From a virus (taxonomy: Duplodnaviria > Heunggongvirae > Uroviricota > Caudoviricetes), in IMG/VR virus record IMGVR_UViG_2541047952_000002: 24,461 bases of DNA; one strand, 5' to 3'. Numbering within the stretch: the first letter of the stretch is position 1; the number at the start of each line of letters is the position of its first letter. The translations under genes and the position numbers were made by a program. The notes below the pieces were generated by a model. It had not been told where the DNA came from, searched no databases, and saw only the letters and a list, made by a program, of their open reading frames with translations. Of this stretch, positions 1 through 21,554 are shown piece after piece.

Positions 1-1053
1 TTACGGGGTAATGCCAACCGCTGCCGCCACTTTGTCGCCACTTGGCAGCGTTGCCAGAGGATTGAAACGGAGCGCCGTTTCCAGATGATCCGGTGCCAGA
101 TGTGCGTAACGCATAGTCATTTTTATATCGTGATGTCCGAGGATTTTTTGCAAAGCAAGGATATTTCCACCCGACATCATGAAATGCGCCGCAAACGTAT
201 GGCGCAGAACGTGTGTCAGTTGACCGCGAGGGAGCACGATAGACGTTTTTTCCATCACGGATAAAAATTGAAAATAGCAGTCTGTAAAGAAATTGAACCC
301 ATCAAGCGCCATGATCTCTTCGTAAAGCTCTTTACTGATAGGGATGCTCCTGTTTTTCTTCCCCTTCGTTCTTACAAAGGTAATTCGGTATTTGGTCACC
401 TGTGAGCGGGTAAGATTTATTGCTTCTCGCCAGCGTGCGCCTGTGCTTAGGCATATCTTGACTACCAGTGCCAGAATTGGGTTCTGACGTTTGCAGTCAG
501 ACAGTAATTCGATAATCTGCTCATGTGTAAGCCATGCCATTTCCTTTTCTGCGATAGTGAATTTGCGCATCTTCTCTAATGGGTTTGGAAGTGTCCATTC
601 ACCCAGGCGGGAAAGTTCTCTGAAAACGCTGCTTAGATGGCTTTGCTCCAGGTTAACAGTAACTGGGCTTGCTCCTTTCTTCCATTTTTCACTGAAGTAG
701 ATTTCACCAGTAAGGCGTTTATCGCGATAGTGAGCAAACATTTTTGAGGTGAGATCAGTTGCAAGGGGATTTCCCAAGGCGTCAACCATCAACAGCAGCT
801 TGTTGTAGACATTCTGTCCGGCAGTAAGAGATTTGCCATGTAATTTGAACCATAGCTCAACCATATCTTTCAGTGTCCGACGATCCACTGATTCGCCCAG
901 CCAGGGCTTTGCTTCTATTTCCCCCATGGTGTATCGCTCGAAGGCCAGTGCTTCGCCTTTGGTGGCGAATTGTTTACGCACACGACGCCCATTACGTCCG
1001 GCGGGGTAACATTCGCAAAGCCATTTCCCTGTGGTGAGTTTTCGTACTGCCAT
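1..1053 (-). CDS. int: Tyrosine site-specific integrase (P2/186 Int family)
   Basis: ORF 1..1209 (-). C-terminal 'HVLRHTFAAHFMMSGGNILALQKILGHHDIKMTMRYAHL' fits the tyrosine recombinase H-x-x-R ... Y catalytic signature. N-terminal 'GRNGRRVRKQFATKGEALAFE' resembles P2 Int. Start moved to in-frame ATG at 1051-1053 (~350 aa) preceded by GGAGGG; the 52-codon upstream extension to 1209 is probably non-coding. Confidence 0.88.
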   Translation of the reverse strand: MAVRKLTTGKWLCECYPAGRNGRRVRKQFATKGEALAFERYTMGEIEAKPWLGESVDRRTLKDMVELWFKLHGKSLTAGQNVYNKLLLMVDALGNPLATDLTSKMFAHYRDKRLTGEIYFSEKWKKGASPVTVNLEQSHLSSVFRELSRLGEWTLPNPLEKMRKFTIAEKEMAWLTHEQIIELLSDCKRQNPILALVVKICLSTGARWREAINLTRSQVTKYRITFVRTKGKKNRSIPISKELYEEIMALDGFNFFTDCYFQFLSVMEKTSIVLPRGQLTHVLRHTFAAHFMMSGGNILALQKILGHHDIKMTMRYAHLAPDHLETALRFNPLATLPSGDKVAAAVGITP

Positions 1054-1241
1054 AAAAAATGCCCTCCAGTAGAGAGCATTTTCACTGTATGTATAACCAG
1101 TGTCAATGTATGAAATCCTACGACCATACATCTCACTGAAGCCATAATTAAGTTGGCTATTCTTTTTGCTATGTGAGCATGTAACTTTTGCGGTTAACCT
1201 GCGGCTCATTTTTATTTTAGGCGCAGATATAAAAGCAAAAG

Positions 1242-1433
1242 TTATCGTGAGTTTTTAGTACAGATTTTTTTGGATTTACTAATAGTTCCATCATTGCAAA
1301 CGAATTTGCCATCTGAGGTACAGTGAGAAACACCTCCCTTTTTCCCTGAACAGGGATAATTTCTAGCATAGGTAGTTAGTGGGTTTAATAACAAAGAACA
1401 TGACAAAACCACAAAAAATACCTTACCAAGCAT
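1242..1433 (-). CDS. Small secreted Cys-rich protein (63 aa), hypothetical; moron candidate between cI and int
   Basis: ORF with strong RBS (GGGAGGA ~6 nt upstream of ATG at 1431-1433). N-terminal hydrophobic signal-peptide-like segment '[23 protein letters not shown]', then a basic mature part with 4 Cys. AT-rich relative to flanking int. Confidence 0.45.
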
Positions 1434-1448
1434 AGTTTCCTCCCGGTA

Positions 1449-2024
1449 CTATTTAACATACTTGACTGTTAAACTTATAATTTTACCAATTATTTCAATG
1501 TCTTCTATCTTGCATTCGAAGGCTCTGTTTCCACCCTCGACGAAGATTCTTCCACCGGGTAAACGAGTAATGTCACGGATCGTTATTTCGCCATCAATAC
1601 TTATTACCCATTTACCATCACGTATATCATCAAATTCCTTATCACAAATAAATTCAGAATTATTATCTGTGATTACAAAAAGATTCTTGAATGCCGACGG
1701 TAGAAATTCCCTATCGAAAATATAAAAACCGTCTTCACACAAGGCCCCATCAGATAATACATATTTAGCAACTTCCATAGTATTTGTATTACCTGAAGTT
1801 TGCTTTGAACCATGCCCGGTTGTGAGCCAATTAAGCGAGGTGCCCGTTTCAAGGGCGCACTGGATTACCCATTCTGCGGGGAATGAGTCACGCATGTAAC
1901 GTGTGGCGAGTGTACTTTTAGAGATTCCTAAATGATCGCACAACGCCTGTCGAGTCTTGAATCCATAAGCTTCTACCATGCGCTCTATAGCGCCTCGTCC
2001 GCCTTTCTCCAAATTCATGGTCAC
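1449..2024 (-). CDS. cI: Phage immunity repressor, 186 CI-like (HTH N-terminal domain + C-terminal domain)
   Basis: 191 aa, divergent from the cox-like early operon and directly upstream of int. N-terminal HTH-like segment 'AYGFKTRQALCDHLGISKSTLATRYMR'. Size matches 186 CI (~190 aa), not P2 C (~99 aa). Confidence 0.7.
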   Translation of the reverse strand: MTMNLEKGGRGAIERMVEAYGFKTRQALCDHLGISKSTLATRYMRDSFPAEWVIQCALETGTSLNWLTTGHGSKQTSGNTNTMEVAKYVLSDGALCEDGFYIFDREFLPSAFKNLFVITDNNSEFICDKEFDDIRDGKWVISIDGEITIRDITRLPGGRIFVEGGNRAFECKIEDIEIIGKIISLTVKYVK

Positions 2025-2143: not shown

Positions 2144-2365
2144 ATGAGACCTAACATTTCAATCACTCTTACCACGCCTCATGTGACTATTGAACGCTAT
2201 AGCGAGCTGACAGGGCTGTCCATCGATACCATCAATGACATGTTGGCTGATGGACGCCTTATCCGTCACCGTTTGCGCAAAGATAAAAAACGCGAAAAAG
2301 TGATGATCAACATAGCAGCCATGACCGTTGATGCGCTTTCAGAATGCAATCTAAACCTTAATTAG
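2144..2365 (+). CDS. Cox/Apl-like excisionase and transcriptional regulator (small HTH protein)
   Basis: 73-aa first gene of the early rightward operon, divergent from cI. HTH-like '[26 protein letters not shown]'. Position is identical to P2 cox / 186 apl. Confidence 0.6.
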
Positions 2366-2391: not shown

Positions 2392-2907
2392 TTGACCATG
2401 TTTGATTACCAAGTTTCCAAACATCCACATTTTGATGAAGCCTGTCGTGCATTCGCACTGCGCCACAATCTGGTGCAACTGGCAGAACGTGCAGGCATGA
2501 ATGTGCAGATTCTGCGGAACAAACTGAACCCAGCTCAACCTCATTTATTAACCGCACCAGAAATTTGGTTGCTTACCGATCTGACTGAAGATTCAACGCT
2601 GGTAGATGGTTTTCTGGCACAGATTCATTGTCTGCCATGTGTTCCGATTAATGAGGTGGCAAAAGAGAAACTACCGCATTACGTCATGAGTGCAACTGCA
2701 GAGATAGGTCGTGTCGCGGCAGGTGCGGTTTCTGGAGATGTAAAAACCAGTGCAGGCCGTCGTGATGCTATCAGCAGCATTAACTCTGTTACACGACTGA
2801 TGGCGCTGGCTGCTGTTTCATTGCAGGCCCGTTTACAGGCTAATCCTGCGATGGCGAGTGCAGTTGATACCATGACCGGCCTTGGTGCTTCATTCGGTTT
2901 GCTGTGA
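2392..2907 (+). CDS. Phage regulatory protein, 186 CII-like (HTH)
   Basis: 171 aa, second gene of the early operon. HTH-like '[19 protein letters not shown]'. Size and position match 186 CII (~169 aa). Confidence 0.55.
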
Positions 2908-7366: not shown

Positions 7367-7555
7367 ATGCAGGACTATTTTTTGGAGTCTTTGAAGCTCC
7401 AGCGCATTGATTTTTTTCTTAAGCTTGTAGCGGCTAGTGAGTGTAGTGATGAAGAGAAGGGGCTGGCTTTGCAGTGGGTTTCTGAACTGACAGATGAACT
7501 CATGGCAAAAATCAGAAGCCACGAATACAACCGCTCAATGGATGTCATCAGCTGA
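7367..7555 (+). CDS. Hypothetical small protein (62 aa), first gene of the LexA-controlled module; possible Tum-like antirepressor component
   Basis: ORF 7265..7555 trimmed to ATG 7367 preceded by GGAGGA. Position downstream of gene A and behind a LexA box parallels 186 tum. No motif recognised. Confidence 0.4.
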   Translation: MQDYFLESLKLQRIDFFLKLVAASECSDEEKGLALQWVSELTDELMAKIRSHEYNRSMDVIS

Positions 7556-7565
7556 GGGGACTTTT

Positions 7566-7799
7566 ATGCGCATTGAAATAATGATCGATAAAGAGCAGAA
7601 GATTAGCCAGTCTACCCTGGACGCCCTTGAATCCGAGCTTTACCGCAATCTGCGCCCCCTGTATCCCAAAACGGTAATTCGTATCCGTAAAGGTAGCTCT
7701 AACGGTGTGGAACTGACCGGACTGCAACTGGACGAAGAAAGGAAGCAAGTGATGAAAATTATGCAGAAGGTGTGGGAAGACGACAGCTGGCTGCATTAA
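7566..7799 (+). CDS. dinI: DinI-family protein
   Basis: ORF 7494..7799 trimmed to ATG 7566 (GAGGGGA upstream). 'MRIEIMIDKEQKISQSTLDALESELYRNL...' and C-terminal 'KVWEDDSWL' resemble E. coli DinI ('MRIEVTIAK...TWESADDWF'). Confidence 0.7.
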   Translation: MRIEIMIDKEQKISQSTLDALESELYRNLRPLYPKTVIRIRKGSSNGVELTGLQLDEERKQVMKIMQKVWEDDSWLH

Positions 7800-7807
7800 G
7801 AAACGTT

Positions 7808-7837
7808 GCCCCCAAGAGAATTTATTCTGATGGGGGC
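7808..7837. terminator. Hairpin between convergent dinI-like and GNAT genes (probable bidirectional terminator)
   Basis: GCCCCCAAGAGAAT-TT-ATTCTGATGGGGGC forms a long imperfect stem, followed by TAGTTTGGG. Confidence 0.45.
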
Positions 7838-7912
7838 TAGTTTGGGCAATGAGTGAAACAAGGCGTAAGGTGGTCGGCCTGTTGGCAGCGTTGAAAAGCG
7901 AAAGCCGCAATA

Positions 7913-8332
7913 CTATAAATTAGTTTTTATTAGATAGTGCCTTTGTGCTCCTGCTTTAGGGAAATCAGGTAATGACATTTGAAGTATATAACCCTGTTTT
8001 TCATAAAAGGGGAGCGCCTGGAAGCTAAATGTATCGACAAGGCCATGAATACAACCGTTCATCACACCTTCTTTCTCAGCCATGCTCATAAGTTTGCTAC
8101 CCAAACCGCCACTCCGTGTTGATTCACTCACCCAAAGATAATCAATACACAGCCATGGGCCTTTCCTGTTCGCAATTAATCCACCTACCATCTCGCCGAT
8201 TTCATTTCTGCAGTAAACACCGATCTGTCCATTTTTACTAAAATCGATAAACTGAGCATTATAGCTTCTTAGCCCAGCTAACAGTTCTTCTCTATCATAT
8301 TCAGTAACTTTATTAACTACTTGAATGTCCAT
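7913..8332 (-). CDS. GNAT-family N-acetyltransferase (139 aa), cargo gene
   Basis: Acetyl-CoA-binding-type motif '[17 protein letters not shown]' (R/Q-x-x-G-x-G/A), then 'FYEKQGY'. AT-rich, opposite strand to neighbours. Confidence 0.7.
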
Positions 8333-8548
8333 ACATATCCGTTTTAGTGATTATTTTATTTAGTGCTAAATGTTATAGATAAGTTTCCTTTGTGTTTCAA
8401 TACATTGTTGTAAATTAAATCAATTTACCATTTCCAGGTCCGTTCCTTGCTCACAGCGAACCTTTACCTTTGTTAGCTCGAATGTGTCGTATTCAAACGG
8501 TCATTCAGATACGGATTTTCACTTCCCTTAGATTGTGCATGACTATGC

Positions 8549-8680
8549 CGCATGAATCTGCATGATCGTTTGAGGATCGTTTTTGCTAAGGCCCACCAGA
8601 ACTGGCGGGCTTTTGCGTAGATCATGCAGGTGCATGAAAACCACTACATAAAGCGGGCAGGCGTGGCGGGGATACGAGCG
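8549..8680. other. Candidate cos/packaging region: inverted repeats, terminator-like hairpin and a cos-like GGCGTGGCGGGGA motif
   Basis: GGCGTGGCGGGGA (8660-8672) matches the first 13 nt of the 186 cohesive end as I remember it (GGCGTGGCGGGGAAAGCAT; P2 GGCGAGGCGGGGAAAGCAC), then diverges. Upstream are a 17-nt imperfect inverted repeat (CATGAATCTGCATGATC 8551-8567 / GATCATGCAGGTGCATG 8620-8636) and a GC hairpin plus T-run (8591-8614). Confidence 0.3.
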
Positions 8681-8803
8681 CGCGCACGTGGCTTCTAGAC
8701 ATATATCAGAGGCTTTGTTTCAATCGTAATTTATTAAATTGATTATGTTTGAATGATTTGTCATATTCTATAAGTGTTCAAGATGGCAATAAGAGGTGTC
8801 TTA

Positions 8804-10405
8804 ATGTTTGAAATTCCGAAGGCTGATGGTTCTAGCTTTGAATTGAAGTTGGCTCCTGGAGAGGTTGTTTTCTTGTTAGGACCAAATGGTTCCGGAAAGT
8901 CTTCTATAATTGATTTTCTATACAAAAAATATCCTAATAGATTTGAGAAAATAATTGCGCATAGACAAAATTGGATTCAGTCTAACAGATCTAACGTATC
9001 CAATCATGAGAGTCATCAAACATCAGGTTATATTAAGAGTTGGGATTCGCAGGAGGAGTCAAGATACAAAGATGATTATTCCGGTCGTAGAACAGAGATC
9101 TTACTGAACAAAATAATCTCTGCAGAGAATCATGCAGCCAGAACTTTTGTCAATAATTTCTCCCTAGCTTCTCGCGAGGGGCGTGGTAATTTAACTCTTA
9201 CGGAAACACCAGTTGAGAAAATTAATAGATGCCTGAATGAAGCTTTTATTAATATTACGATAAGAATAGATGATTCGGATTCTTTGTTGGTAAGTCGCAA
9301 TGGCTCTGATGAATATAGCTTGGCTCAGCTTTCTGACGGAGAAAGAAATGCAATATTTATTGCAATTGCCATTTTTACAGCCCCAGACGGCGCCTTTTTT
9401 TTAATCGATGAGCCAGAGAGGCATTTGCATCCTTCAATATCTCATTCGTTGATTAAATCTCTTTTAAATGAGCGCCCCGATTGTGGATATGTAATATCCA
9501 CACATGATTTATCTTTGCCATCAGCAGTACCTCATTCCAGAGTGTTGTTGCTGAGAGATTGCGTGTATGAAAATATGCGACCAGTTCGTTGGTATATAGA
9601 CGCAATTGACTCATTGGCGGAAATTGATGAGAGGCTTCGAGAAGACATACTTGGGTCAAGGAAAAAAATAATCTTTGTTGAGGGTAATACATCATCAAGC
9701 TTAGACCAGAAGCTATACTCGATAATTTTTCCAGGTTATTCGGTAATACCAAAAGCTAGTTGCGATTATGTCGAGCGTTCTGTGGATGGTCTGAGAGAGT
9801 CGGAAAATCTTCATCATGTAATTCCATATGGTATTATTGATAATGATAATAAACCTGAACGACAGGTTTCAAATCTTGAAATGAAAGGGGTTTATTCTTT
9901 AAATGTGCACTCAATTGAATCAATATACTATCATCCGGAATTAATTTTAAACGTAATTAATAATTATAAGGATTCTCAAAATATATCGGACCCCGATGCA
10001 TTATATGCGCAGTTGTGTGACGAGTCATTGTCCATGCTTTCCGAGCACAAAGAAAGACTATGCTGTAGAGCAATAGAGAAAGCCATTAGGTCTAAGCTAT
10101 TTTCGAATTTGCCAACTTTGAGAAGTATTGAAGCGGGGAATGATGTTAATATAAATATTAACGTTGGTGATTTTTTGAGAGAAGAAATTGTCTTTTTTGA
10201 AAACTGTCTACGTCAGCAAGATCTCATCAGTTTAGTCGAAAAATATCCAATTCGTGAAACTGCTTATATCGCTAAGGTGCATAAGCTATTGGGGTATTCA
10301 ACGCGTCAACTTTACGAGCATAATCTTTTACGCCTTGTAACGTCGAATTCTGAGGTGAAAAATATTGCCAAAAGGCTGATTGGCAATATTTGCAATGTTA
10401 TATGA
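8804..10405 (+). CDS. Solitary ABC-type ATPase fused to a Toprim-like nuclease domain (OLD-family / PARIS AriAB-like candidate anti-phage protein)
   Basis: ORF 8774..10405 (GTG) trimmed to ATG 8804, 7 nt after AAGAGG. Walker A 'GPNGSGKS', ABC signature-like 'LSDGERN', Walker B plus His 'FFLIDEPERHLHPS'. C-terminal half has 'KKIIFVEGNTSS' (Toprim glutamate) and 'GIIDNDNK' (DxD). Strongly AT-rich. Confidence 0.8.
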   Translation: MFEIPKADGSSFELKLAPGEVVFLLGPNGSGKSSIIDFLYKKYPNRFEKIIAHRQNWIQSNRSNVSNHESHQTSGYIKSWDSQEESRYKDDYSGRRTEILLNKIISAENHAARTFVNNFSLASREGRGNLTLTETPVEKINRCLNEAFINITIRIDDSDSLLVSRNGSDEYSLAQLSDGERNAIFIAIAIFTAPDGAFFLIDEPERHLHPSISHSLIKSLLNERPDCGYVISTHDLSLPSAVPHSRVLLLRDCVYENMRPVRWYIDAIDSLAEIDERLREDILGSRKKIIFVEGNTSSSLDQKLYSIIFPGYSVIPKASCDYVERSVDGLRESENLHHVIPYGIIDNDNKPERQVSNLEMKGVYSLNVHSIESIYYHPELILNVINNYKDSQNISDPDALYAQLCDESLSMLSEHKERLCCRAIEKAIRSKLFSNLPTLRSIEAGNDVNININVGDFLREEIVFFENCLRQQDLISLVEKYPIRETAYIAKVHKLLGYSTRQLYEHNLLRLVTSNSEVKNIAKRLIGNICNVI

Positions 10406-19005: not shown

Positions 19006-19659
19006 CTAATCCATAAATGGTTCAAGAATTGGACCTAATTCAGCATCTTCCATAATGATCCATCTGCAAAATGATGAAAAAGCTGCGTCTCTTTTTATCA
19101 TCATCTTCATTTTTTCAATTAAGTATTTTTTTTGTTCTGTTGGAGTATCTTCTTCATAATATTCATTAATATTTTTAATTAGTTTTTGGGTTGTTTTCAC
19201 TACTTGAGTACGAAGTGCCGCAGAAGTTAATTTTTTACTCATGGTATGATCGCTATTATATACTTTCTCAAGTAACTCTGCGGTCGTCTGCGTTTCAATA
19301 TCATTAAATAGTGCTGTTACTGTTATTTTTTTTGCTTTATAAGAATATCCTGGGAGTAATTTTACTCGATCCCATACCTTTTCTTTACAGCAATCAAGAA
19401 TGTTGTCATATTTTGATAGTTTTATATTGTTACATCTGGAACATGATAGATATAAATTATCCCAATCAAAAGCTCTTTCCACATCATCACCCTTGGGTTT
19501 AAAATGTTCAATGTTTATATCCAAAGGGTTCTTTGTTTCGCAAATGTAACATTTTCCATAAAAGCATTCCTGTAGTGCTTCATGTACATCAGCACCATCA
19601 TAACGTGCTTTCTTGGAAAGAGACTTTGGTGCAGGATATGTTCTATTAACCTTGAACAT
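19006..19659 (-). CDS. HNH endonuclease (217 aa), second gene of an ATPase + HNH pair (Septu PtuB-like)
   Basis: HNH-type motif 'CYICETKNPLDINIEHFKPK...FDWDNLYLSCSRCNNIK' (C-x2-C ... H ... N ... C-x2-C-N). Start ATG overlaps the upstream ATPase stop by 1 nt (TAATG). Very AT-rich. Confidence 0.8.
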   Translation of the reverse strand: MFKVNRTYPAPKSLSKKARYDGADVHEALQECFYGKCYICETKNPLDINIEHFKPKGDDVERAFDWDNLYLSCSRCNNIKLSKYDNILDCCKEKVWDRVKLLPGYSYKAKKITVTALFNDIETQTTAELLEKVYNSDHTMSKKLTSAALRTQVVKTTQKLIKNINEYYEEDTPTEQKKYLIEKMKMMIKRDAAFSSFCRWIIMEDAELGPILEPFMD

Positions 19660-20888
19660 TATTTCTCCTGAGAATTTGCTTTTTTATATTTTAGTATCTG
19701 CATTTTTGCATAGTCAATAAATGCACTTGCATGGATGTCCATGGATTCATCTAAAGGTGCTAAGGATTGTATTATGTTATTGGCAGTTTCAATATTGTTG
19801 TTGTTAATATTGTCAATAATATCTTGAAGTTGTTCTAACTTATCTGAAAGAACTTTAGATATTGGACTTACTCCGAATAATTCTTGAAGGATGATACCAT
19901 AAGAATATGAAGACACATCACTAATTTTCGCGTTGGTCGATAGATCATAAATGATGGCATTTGTGACGGATGTAACAACAAACGGAGAATGTGTAGTGAC
20001 AATGAATTGTACTTTAGGAAAGGAGTGACTAAAAAATCTTAATATTTGCTTTTGCAAAGAAACATGTAAATGCGCATCTATTTCATCAATAAAAATAATA
20101 CCTTCGATACTGTCAGGTGTTAAACCCCACATTTCTACTCTCATTATTAAGTCAGCGTAAATTCTCAATATTGATGAGTGGCCAGAAGATAATGTTTGAA
20201 AAGTAAACTTATCTTTACCATCTTGATTGAGATAAAATTTTCCTTCGTTACTATCAAACGTTAGTAAGAGGTTTTTATCTTCAAAAAGTTCCTGCATATC
20301 AGTTTCAATTTTATCAAACCATTTCTGTATCCGCTGAGCTTTCTTATGGTCATTATCAAAAGAAATTGCATAGCTCTGAGCTGTTTTTAAACTAACCAAA
20401 TAATTCTCAAAGAAATCATCACCATCTACTTCATTAGAAAAATGTGATTTTTCATTAATTAAAGCCGATAGCCTAGGAACGGCAATTGGCGAGGTAATTG
20501 ATGCTTCACGTAGAGCTTTGTGAAATCTCAATAGTGAACGTGTTTCACCTTCTTTTTCTTTTGTTTCTATTCTAATGGCTTTTAATTGTTCAATTTTTAA
20601 TTCAATGTTTTTTATTTCTTCAGAATAAAAGTTGTAATTAACGTCGTCACGCCCGCCGTTATTTAAGTGATATTTGTAGGACTCTAACGTATTGTATAAA
20701 TTATTGATGTTATGATCATTAGGTCTATCTATCTTATTTTTAAGGAAATCATAAATAGATCTAATAAAACTAGTTTTTCCACACCCGTTACCACCAGTTA
20801 TTATGAGATTTTTACCGTCAAGCAATAAGTTTGCTGTCTTATTAGTGTATGGAATTGGAGCATAAATTTCATTTATTGATGTAAGCAT
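19659..20888 (-). CDS. ABC-type (AAA_15/AAA_21-like) ATPase (410 aa), first gene of an ATPase + HNH pair (Septu PtuA-like)
   Basis: ORF 19659..20987 trimmed to ATG at 20886-20888 (AAGGGA 7 nt upstream); the longer form would overlap the V start. Walker A 'GGNGCGKTS', 'LSSGHSSIL', Walker B plus His 'IIFIDEIDAHLHVS', 'FIVTTHSPF'. Confidence 0.8.
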   Translation of the reverse strand: MLTSINEIYAPIPYTNKTANLLLDGKNLIITGGNGCGKTSFIRSIYDFLKNKIDRPNDHNINNLYNTLESYKYHLNNGGRDDVNYNFYSEEIKNIELKIEQLKAIRIETKEKEGETRSLLRFHKALREASITSPIAVPRLSALINEKSHFSNEVDGDDFFENYLVSLKTAQSYAISFDNDHKKAQRIQKWFDKIETDMQELFEDKNLLLTFDSNEGKFYLNQDGKDKFTFQTLSSGHSSILRIYADLIMRVEMWGLTPDSIEGIIFIDEIDAHLHVSLQKQILRFFSHSFPKVQFIVTTHSPFVVTSVTNAIIYDLSTNAKISDVSSYSYGIILQELFGVSPISKVLSDKLEQLQDIIDNINNNNIETANNIIQSLAPLDESMDIHASAFIDYAKMQILKYKKANSQEK

Positions 20889-20897
20889 ATATTCCCT

Positions 20898-20915
20898 TGT
20901 ATCGTTAACAGTACA
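20898..20915 (+). promoter_or_regulatory. Candidate PV late-promoter Ogr/B box (TGT-N12-ACA)
   Basis: TGTATCGTTAACAGTACA lies ~60 bp upstream of the V start, with an A/T-rich -10 candidate (GATAATAAT) downstream. It starts 10 bp from the PtuA-like start codon on the opposite strand. Confidence 0.45.
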
Positions 20916-20975
20916 ACTACAACACTGATAATAATACAACTTATTGAGATACAGTTCACCTTTAAGGGGGGAAGG

Positions 20976-21554
20976 GTGAACGCACAATTAACCGAAATCA
21001 TGCGCCTTATCACCAACCTGATCCGCACTGGGGTAGTCACCGAAGTGGACAGGGAAAACTGGCTTTGCCGAGTGAAAACGGGCGAGCTTGAAACTAACTG
21101 GATCAGTTGGCTGACGCTGCGTGCAGGAAATGCCCGGACATGGTGGCGACCATCGGAAGGTGAGCAGGTGGTGCTGCTGAGTCTGGGGGGCAATCTGGAA
21201 ACGGCCTTTGCGCTGCCCGCTGTCTATTCGAATCAGTTTGCGCCACCGTCGACGTCGGCGGACGCCTGTGTGACAGAATATCCTGACGGTGGCTGGTTTG
21301 AATACGAACCTGCCACCGGGCGCTGGTATGTCAGGGGCATCAAATCCATGGTCATTGAGGCTGCCGATAACATCACCCTGAAAACCAGTGAGTTTGTGCT
21401 GGAGGCTGACCGCACGCGTATTAACAGCGAAGTGGTGATCAATGGTGGCGTTACCCAGGGCGGCGGAGCGATGAGCTCTAACGGGATTGTGGTTGATGCG
21501 CATCAGCATACTGGCGTCCTGAAAGGCGGCGATACAACCGGAGGCCCGGTATGA
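20976..21554 (+). CDS. V: Baseplate spike/assembly protein gpV
   Basis: 192 aa, GTG start with AAGGGGGG RBS. 'WLTLRAGNARTWWRPSEGEQV' and 'HQHTG...GGDTTGGP' resemble P2 V. Confidence 0.85.
   Translation: MNAQLTEIMRLITNLIRTGVVTEVDRENWLCRVKTGELETNWISWLTLRAGNARTWWRPSEGEQVVLLSLGGNLETAFALPAVYSNQFAPPSTSADACVTEYPDGGWFEYEPATGRWYVRGIKSMVIEAADNITLKTSEFVLEADRTRINSEVVINGGVTQGGGAMSSNGIVVDAHQHTGVLKGGDTTGGPV

Follow-up and report, generated by a model that had tools for sequence, protein, structure and literature searches.

The stretch of DNA analysed here (IMG/VR record IMGVR_UViG_2541047952_000002, 24,461 nucleotides, called the window below) is a P2/186-like prophage of the Caudoviricetes, which carries between its repressor gene cI and its integrase gene int a gene of the YdcA family, located on the minus strand at 1242..1433 and consisting of 63 codons and a TAA stop (1244..1242), as read from the list of open reading frames (ORFs) and their translations. 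We regard it as close to certain that this is a genuine gene, that it belongs to the YdcA family and that it is cargo of the prophage, and judging from its sequence and position it is probable that the product is exported and expressed together with cI. As a tentative explanation, we propose that this 186/P2-like prophage carries it as an accessory gene (moron) of its lysogenic operon, and that the gene encodes an exported mini-protein which may hinder the entry of DNA. The more specific suggestion, that the protein binds DNA in transit or an outer-membrane-proximal entry site and so hinders the entry of foreign DNA, is more doubtful.

A conserved gene for a small protein with a predicted signal peptide

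The product matches the NCBIfam model NF007463 (PRK10040.1-2) over the whole model (positions 1-58 of 58) and scores 115.8 bits (cut-off 93, E=5.3e-34), while the K-12-type equivalog model NF007462 is missed (68.5 bits vs a cut-off of 118), and it matches phrog_6000 (PHROG 6000) over its full length (E=1.9e-34). The 98%-identical representative of its cluster (P0001) carries PF27300 in the precomputed annotation, as do nearly all homologues, and its names at NCBI are 'YdcA family protein' or 'hypothetical protein'. The UniRef name for the E. coli prophage cluster is 'Conjugal transfer protein', the basis of which is not visible. The motif CSGxKGG[IV]xxC...F[VI]CxDG[ST]xSxSK..C and the four cysteines are present in the window protein, where C28, C38, C46, C58, G33, G34, F44, D48, G49, S52, S54 and K55 are invariant or conserved to at least 90% (alignments A1, A2 and A6). 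In a profile search, the number of representative clusters in the family is 445 when they are drawn at 50% identity and 1,607 when drawn at 90%, and the chromosomal paralogue of E. coli, YdcA (57 amino acids), is about 79% identical to the window protein in the mature part. The ORF, which had been left unassigned in the original prediction, is therefore a member of a catalogued family, and with a chromosomal ydcA in E. coli it is no novelty confined to phages. A local Pfam match to GULLO2-like (E=0.075) was discarded as spurious.

The ORF is under purifying selection. When the window type is compared with the copies of Yersinia, Haemophilus, Neisseria and Brucella, pS is 0.69-0.95 (synonymous sites saturated) against a pN of 0.08-0.18, the median dN/dS across 164 moderately diverged pairs is 0.23, and the reading frame is kept from Alpha- to Gammaproteobacteria. 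The idea that the ORF arose by chance in AT-rich spacer DNA, or that the region is a non-coding regulatory spacer for int, could draw on the low GC content and on the highly structured RNA of the neighbouring spacer, but it is refuted by these conservation data together with profile matches near 1e-34, and we give it practically no credence. The original prediction had made the ORF depend on its conservation in related prophages; it is clearly conserved there, so the ORF stands. The gene begins close behind cI, whose TAG stop (1451..1449) is separated from the ATG of ydcA by a junction of 15 nt (1434..1448, minus strand, read from the sequence as TACCGGGAGGAAACT) that carries the Shine-Dalgarno sequence, a ribosome-binding site (RBS) GGGAGG at 1444..1439, 5 nt ahead of the ATG. 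The earlier description of a 63-amino-acid ORF with a strong RBS in an AT-rich patch is thus correct: the ORF has a GC content of 0.349 and the spacer between ydcA and int one of 0.372, compared with 0.497 for the whole window, and the AT-rich patch extends into the 3' half of cI as well.

Sequence rules and the homologues predict a Sec signal peptide in residues 1-23 (1433..1365, minus strand), with cleavage after A23, followed by a mature basic domain of 40 amino acids with four cysteines (residues 24-63, 1364..1245, minus strand). The leader contains K4 as its sole lysine, a 12-residue hydrophobic core at positions 5-16 (9-residue Kyte-Doolittle means of 2.2-2.6), P18 and T21-Y22-A23, of which A23 is near-invariant among homologues (invariant in alignment A1, at least 90% in A2). 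An AxA-like site stands just ahead of [RKAQ]-N-[YT]-P-C in nearly all of the 78 homologues, and a strongly hydrophobic stretch precedes the domain in 74 of them. A freely varying leader ahead of a nearly frozen domain, as seen here, is the usual pattern of a cleaved signal peptide, and the signal-peptide-like N-terminus seen by the original prediction is therefore supported as a sequence feature. The predicted mature peptide (R24-R63) has a mass of 4,292.9 Da in the reduced state, an isoelectric point (pI) of 9.70 and a net charge of +7 (9 K+R vs 2 D+E), and its cysteines C28, C38, C46 and C58, which are invariant or nearly so and would form disulfides after export, agree with the basic four-cysteine peptide described earlier. 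A fifth cysteine, C12, lies inside the signal region and is not conserved across homologues. A lipoprotein, in which C12 would be the +1 Cys of a lipobox, was considered and rejected, since C12 stands too close to the N-terminus, the hydrophobic leader continues beyond it and the position is not conserved.

The slot between cI and int and its cargo

In the window, the cargo lies between the stop codon of cI and a conserved leader of int. The gene for the 186-type repressor (1449..2024, minus strand; PF07022, 2.8e-33, and PF16452, 2.7e-27) is the first of the leftward lysogenic operon, and the tyrosine integrase gene (1..1053, minus strand, 350 amino acids; PF24624 and PF00589) starts at the ATG at 1053 instead of the longer ORF start at 1209, the same start being annotated by RefSeq in E. 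coli P15-25, which has a 99.8%-identical locus. On the other side of cI there are a divergent cox/apl-like ORF (2144-2365, plus strand) and a gene for CII/CP76 (2392-2907, plus strand; PF06892), so the immunity region is of the 186 type and not of the P2 C type with which it had been compared. In phage 186, cI and int overlap by one base with nothing between them, and relative to it the window has an insertion of about 380 bp, which bears out the earlier view of an insertion between repressor and integrase. The leftward operon has the layout seen in phages 186 and K139; in their records, pL/PL is given as the promoter from which the lysogenic operon (cI-int-orf69 in the case of 186) is transcribed. 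The small orf69 that ends the operon of phage 186 after int (L008:1158-1409) has weak PD40-repeat-like Pfam matches.

The suggestion that ydcA is a moron expressed in the lysogen holds as far as its cargo nature is concerned: the gene is 15 nt behind cI on the same strand, no minus-strand terminator was found between cI and int in a terminator scan, and the slot is variable in relatives. As regards expression, it is the position of the gene that suggests co-transcription with cI. Haemophilus phages HP2 and S2 have an unannotated homologue of 60 amino acids whose first base is also the final base of the cI stop codon; downstream of it come a secreted OB-fold (tRNA_anti-like) protein and then int. 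An overlap of the ATG with the cI stop, present in HP2 and also at locus L084, fits co-expression with cI.

The spacer between ydcA and int (188 nt, 1054..1241) is highly structured, the fold of the minus-strand RNA at 1054-1260 having -61.6 kcal/mol (z = -5.83 vs 200 shuffles), and the whole window gave no Rfam match at gathering thresholds, so this structure corresponds to no known RNA element there. It consists of two parts. A long imperfect hairpin found by RNA folding starts from the ydcA stop codon (1182..1244, minus strand), has no U-run and forms part of the 3' untranslated region of the cassette; it is conserved solely in loci with this ydcA (the window, BL21 and L010). A terminator-like site was also reported at 1188-1204, on the plus strand. 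Downstream, the slot is bounded by the conserved int leader (1054..1135, minus strand), recognised from alignment A5, folding and a promoter scan. About 80 nt immediately ahead of int are conserved in E. coli, Klebsiella, Yersinia and relatives, those with other cargo included, and with relatives that share this int, DNA identity extends only as far as about window position 1111-1131. The leader contains a promoter-like TTGACA (1106..1101) with GAAAAT (1083..1078) and, right ahead of the int ATG, an 11-bp hairpin (1081..1057) followed by U6 (U-run at 1056..1054), which is visible by folding only and holds the int Shine-Dalgarno sequence GGAGG within its 3' arm. The hairpin and T-run are retained in relatives, and in 813R9 and Yersinia the stem sequence differs yet is self-complementary. 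Transcripts from the promoter-like site upstream would begin inside the hairpin and so would free the int RBS; the element thus looks like an attenuator or a translational control of int, apart from the ydcA cassette.

In relatives, the slot between cI and int is a variable cargo space that often holds defence cargo. Klebsiella phage 4LV2017 (L002) and E. coli phage 813R9 (L003), whose int DNA is 90-92% identical to that of the window, have in this place a 349-amino-acid protein with no family match and PD-Lambda-1 (3e-120), respectively. EPEC E2348/69 (L169) has a second CI-like protein with a duplicated helix-turn-helix together with a KAP NTPase (PDC-S20), and in E. coli CI5 (L170) cI is followed by a YdcA-like protein of 60 amino acids, a KAP NTPase (PDC-S20, 2e-171) and a different int, so that cI and ydcA move as a pair there. 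The cI-int region has been described as an antiviral hotspot in K139-like Vibrio phages (Rousset et al. 2022, PMC9122126), and the region from int to the primase gene as a minor P2 defence hotspot in a 2026 survey (PMC13586616).

The arrangement of cI, YdcA and int is present in at least 592 of the 5,426 complete E. coli genomes (counted when at least 80% of a 1.1-kb query was covered), including BL21 at 96% identity, and the 5' end of int with the leader alone is common to roughly 500 further E. coli genomes. In a census of neighbours with one genome per species, for which 80 of 121 loci were kept, the commonest immediate upstream neighbour was a 186-type CI (7/77), followed by HTH_3 repressors, and the commonest downstream neighbour was an integrase (6/75). 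Three Yersinia species, whose cI is 38% and whose int is 48% identical to the window genes, also have the order cI, ydcA, int, as do a Pasteurellaceae metagenome-assembled genome and H. parainfluenzae, and where the arrangement recurs (Yersinia, Pasteurellaceae, Haemophilus HP2/S2) the identity of cI is just 31-39%. Six P2-like prophages from beta- and gammaproteobacteria have ydcA behind an HTH_3 repressor, with gpD nearby. Homologues of ydcA are, however, not always between cI and int, as the original prediction had asked: they lie within the tail module in Moraxella and Acinetobacter phages, on plasmids and at ordinary chromosomal sites. The plasmid copies include one on pApiMCR53a of Acinetobacter pittii (L172, 728-904), a mobilisable MOBQ plasmid of 3.9 kb with five genes in all, in which the YdcA-family gene follows a traD-like gene annotated 'conjugal transfer protein TraD', and MobA/MobL is encoded elsewhere. 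Most loci of the family look chromosomal; in Atlantibacter and Citrobacter, for instance, the order is rimM-trmD ... ydcA-DUF2946-PepSY_TM. An apparent variant of the slot in Atlantibacter (L021), with the order cI..int..ydcA, was rejected, as a prophage is inserted there beside the chromosomal ydcA.

Both classical P2 hotspots of the window are also occupied. A Septu defence system (PtuA 2e-138 and PtuB 5e-100; 19006-20987, minus strand) is inserted amid the genes for baseplate and tail, against their orientation, and the hotspot from gpA to the portal gene (7494-10405) contains a DinI-like gene (7494-7799, plus strand), a gene for a GNAT acetyltransferase (7913-8332, minus strand) and one for a fused AriAB/PARIS-like ATPase-DUF4435 protein of 543 amino acids (8774-10405, plus strand; PADLOC AriAB 8e-58).

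A possible barrier to incoming DNA and its rivals

We suppose that the leftward lysogenic promoter would transcribe ydcA together with cI, with the gene's own strong RBS driving translation, and that the precursor would be exported by Sec and cleaved after Ala23. The resulting domain of 40 amino acids (4.3 kDa, highly basic), locked by two disulfides in the periplasm, could then bind a conserved polyanionic or outer-membrane-proximal ligand, at best guess DNA in transit or an envelope site of DNA entry, by which the lysogen would gain a barrier to incoming DNA (superinfection or entry exclusion). An exclusion or envelope action is plausible; the ligand and the exclusion role are hypothetical.

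Clues to such a function come from domain fusions and from structure, as well as from the net charge of +7, from the plasmid copy beside a traD-like gene in Acinetobacter and from the exclusion protein Glo, which K139 encodes between cI and int. The recurrent site behind repressors and the defence cargo of the slot in relatives also speak for it. In six of the 20 long proteins examined, the YdcA domain follows a signal peptide and is fused to a nuclease, of three unrelated folds in all: to SNase in P0112 (4.8e-24), to Endonuclease_NS in four proteins (P0162, P0180, P0187 and a Methylococcales ORF, L041:5878-6936, with values down to 1.8e-34) and to a PLD-like nuclease in P0186 (5e-19). Tandem YdcA domains in two or three copies also occur (for example P0065, P0068 and P0073), and the PBCV basic adaptor domain (PF08789) is commonly next after the YdcA domain. 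P0144 and P0157 have an unidentified C-terminal domain in common. An AF2 model built from a 48-sequence alignment gives a small beta-hairpin fold with a pLDDT of 77-93 over the domain, for which Legionella Dis2 (Lpg0823) is the top Foldseek match and the sole meaningful relative in the PDB (probability 0.98, E=0.086, 39% identity over 38 columns). Dis2 was also retrieved by sequence profile with E=3.3e-4, or a marginal 0.041 with the domain alone. It has two similar lobes and five disulfides and lies beside the outer membrane in the Dot/Icm cap (PMC8486379), where it contacts DotK, DotC and DotD (PMC12716638; PMC8486379). This likeness, although the homology is marginal, supports two disulfides per YdcA domain and a periplasmic site near the outer membrane. 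The window product also has a weak match (E=0.11) to NCBIfam NF052673 ('lpg1681 family'), a family of small Legionella proteins, which together with the Dis2 match suggests that Legionella may hold diverged relatives of the YdcA domain.

Several points weigh against a barrier to DNA. The window protein has no family in PADLOC-DB 2.0 at E<=0.01, and in the literature found no experiment ties any YdcA-family protein to the exclusion of phages or DNA. Most family members stand at ordinary chromosomal sites, and the core E. coli paralogue with its organic-acid phenotype (PMC7642389) points to a housekeeping role in the envelope. The nuclease fusions are rare, as the six fusions among the 20 long proteins come from a family of 445 clusters, and they would fit a localisation or anchoring module equally as well as DNA binding. 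In addition, export is a prediction from sequence rules only, and expression in lysogens is argued from gene position.

The strongest competing view is that of a host-fitness (lysogenic conversion) factor, that is, an extra envelope or stress-tolerance protein that does the job of chromosomal YdcA, such as tolerance to acids or organic acids, with no action on phages. We consider this an explanation of some, though rather low, probability. It agrees with the identity of about 79% between the mature domain and chromosomal YdcA and with the majority of chromosomal family loci that have no link to phages. When ydcA is deleted, E. coli W becomes sensitive to 300 mM 3-hydroxypropionate, and the gene is reported to be induced at pH 5 under YdcI (PMC7642389). 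This is the only phenotype we located in the literature, for the chromosomal gene, and as a link to acid it is a single growth phenotype with no mechanism; on the function of the family itself the literature search found no paper, the name 'ydcA' mostly retrieving unrelated namesakes (a plasmid leading-region methylase, a B. subtilis rhomboid and a gonococcal island gene). Moreover, a host-fitness role leaves unexplained the repeated capture of the gene behind phage repressors, its presence on tiny mobilisable plasmids and its fusions to nucleases, and NCBIfam has two separate equivalogs, NF007463 for the prophage type and NF007462 for that of K-12. Less likely still is an envelope-anchoring or adaptor module with no contact to nucleic acids, which would attach to lipoproteins of the outer membrane, or to that membrane's inner face, and alter an envelope structure used by phages, such as a receptor or secretin. 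The contacts of Dis2 with DotK, DotC and DotD, its place as top match both by sequence profile and by Foldseek, and the possibility that the fusions serve to localise secreted nucleases all fit such a module. On the other side, Dis2 is only a marginal homologue and a dispensable protein with no known function (PMC8486379; PMC12716638), and the window contains no genes of a type IV secretion system (T4SS). The outcome, exclusion, would be the same as for the DNA barrier that we prefer, the ligand alone being different.

Metal binding and toxicity follow in decreasing order. A periplasmic binder of metal (copper), acting through conserved Cys/His, would make use of C28, H37, C38, C46 and C58, which are conserved, and the chromosomal copy in Atlantibacter and Citrobacter lies directly upstream of genes for DUF2946 and PepSY_TM. 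These two families accompany TonB-dependent uptake loci for copper or iron. We nevertheless consider this role improbable, since H37 is replaced in many members (by A, R, K, Y, S or G), no metal genes are near the phage-borne copies and the homologous cysteines of Dis2 form disulfides in the cryo-EM map (PMC8486379). The original prediction had also listed a small toxin or bacteriocin-like peptide among the candidate roles, and a secreted toxin, bacteriocin or antimicrobial peptide would indeed be small, cationic and Cys-rich with a leader. It is disfavoured, and in our view very unlikely, because a Sec signal in Gram-negative cells reaches the periplasm only, no gene for immunity, maturation/processing or export is adjacent (the sole neighbours being cI and int), and the family is widespread as a single-copy stand-alone chromosomal gene under strong purifying selection. 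To return to the proposed barrier, it could be extended to the whole family: YdcA-type mini-proteins may form an unrecognised, widespread class of single-gene periplasmic entry exclusion factors, in which the disulfide-locked basic domain of 40 amino acids would bind DNA in transit or the entry site near the outer membrane, with P2-like phages having the gene behind the repressor and small plasmids carrying it too, their domain serving also as a targeting module of periplasmic nucleases of three folds, and Dis2 being a duplicated relative built into a T4SS. We think this broader idea unlikely as it stands and offer it as a speculation.

Significance and relation to known systems

The gene and its family are already catalogued (there is an NCBIfam equivalog for this subfamily and a PGAP name in some genomes), and the slot is a known type of hotspot, so no new kind of system is described here. 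What appears not to have been described in the searchable literature is the recurrent site behind diverse P2-like repressors, the fusions to three nuclease folds and the possible kinship with Dis2. If the proposed barrier is real, the protein would be among the smallest prophage-encoded protective factors known, a first function would be available for a family of about 1,600 clusters (90% identity) across Proteobacteria, E. coli ydcA included, and the enterobacterial 186-like cI-int slot would join the working list of defence hotspots. If it is wrong, the gene is still a clean conserved moron that is often labelled 'hypothetical' and was missed altogether in HP2 and S2. Testing is made easy by BL21, which carries the gene at 96% locus identity, and by a mature peptide short enough for synthesis.

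Among known proteins, the closest is YdcA of E. coli K-12 (b1419; NF007462/NF007463/NF007464, PF27300, PHROG 6000), which likewise consists of a signal peptide and a domain of about 35 amino acids with the same motif and four cysteines; the window protein differs in belonging to the prophage subfamily NF007463 and in being encoded in a phage lysogeny operon, not at the chromosomal ydcA locus. With Legionella pneumophila Dis2 (Lpg0823; PDB 7MUC/7MUD), it shares the core C-S-K-x-GG-I-x-x-C ... G-x-x-V-C-N-[ND]-G-x-x-S, and both would be small, disulfide-stabilised, periplasmic and outer-membrane-proximal proteins, which for the window protein is a prediction. Unlike it, Dis2 is a two-lobed part of a secretion machine and contains five disulfides, while the window, a P2/186-like prophage, contains no type IVB secretion genes, and the match of the domain alone (E=0.041) is marginal.

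As to position, the nearest parallel is Glo of phage K139, annotated in the phage record as 'periplasmic protein; involved in phage exclusion' and encoded between cI and int. Both phages belong to the Peduoviridae, both genes occupy the same slot in the order PL, cI, cargo, int, and the periplasm is also the predicted location of the window protein. A homologue of Glo was nevertheless rejected, because hhalign gave a probability of 1.5% with the signal peptides alone aligned. Glo has 137 amino acids, and the exclusion stated in its record annotation is documented for Glo and not for YdcA-like proteins; it is said to have been documented by Nesper and colleagues in 1999. The orf69 at the end of the cI-int operon of phage 186 is similarly an accessory gene on the transcript that maintains lysogeny, its protein being unrelated. 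In phage lambda, rexAB rides in the cI operon, and RexAB act in abortive infection in the cytoplasm or inner membrane; proteins and compartments are thus unrelated to those of the window gene. Small exported proteins by which a resident element blocks incoming DNA are known from T5 (Llp), phi80 and N15 (Cor), RP4 (TrbK) and T4 (Sp and Imm). Llp, Cor and TrbK are lipoproteins, unlike the window protein with no conserved lipobox Cys, and within the family libraries searched the window protein shows no sequence similarity to these exclusion proteins. It is exclusion of this kind that we hypothesise, by analogy, as the functional class to which the window protein may belong.

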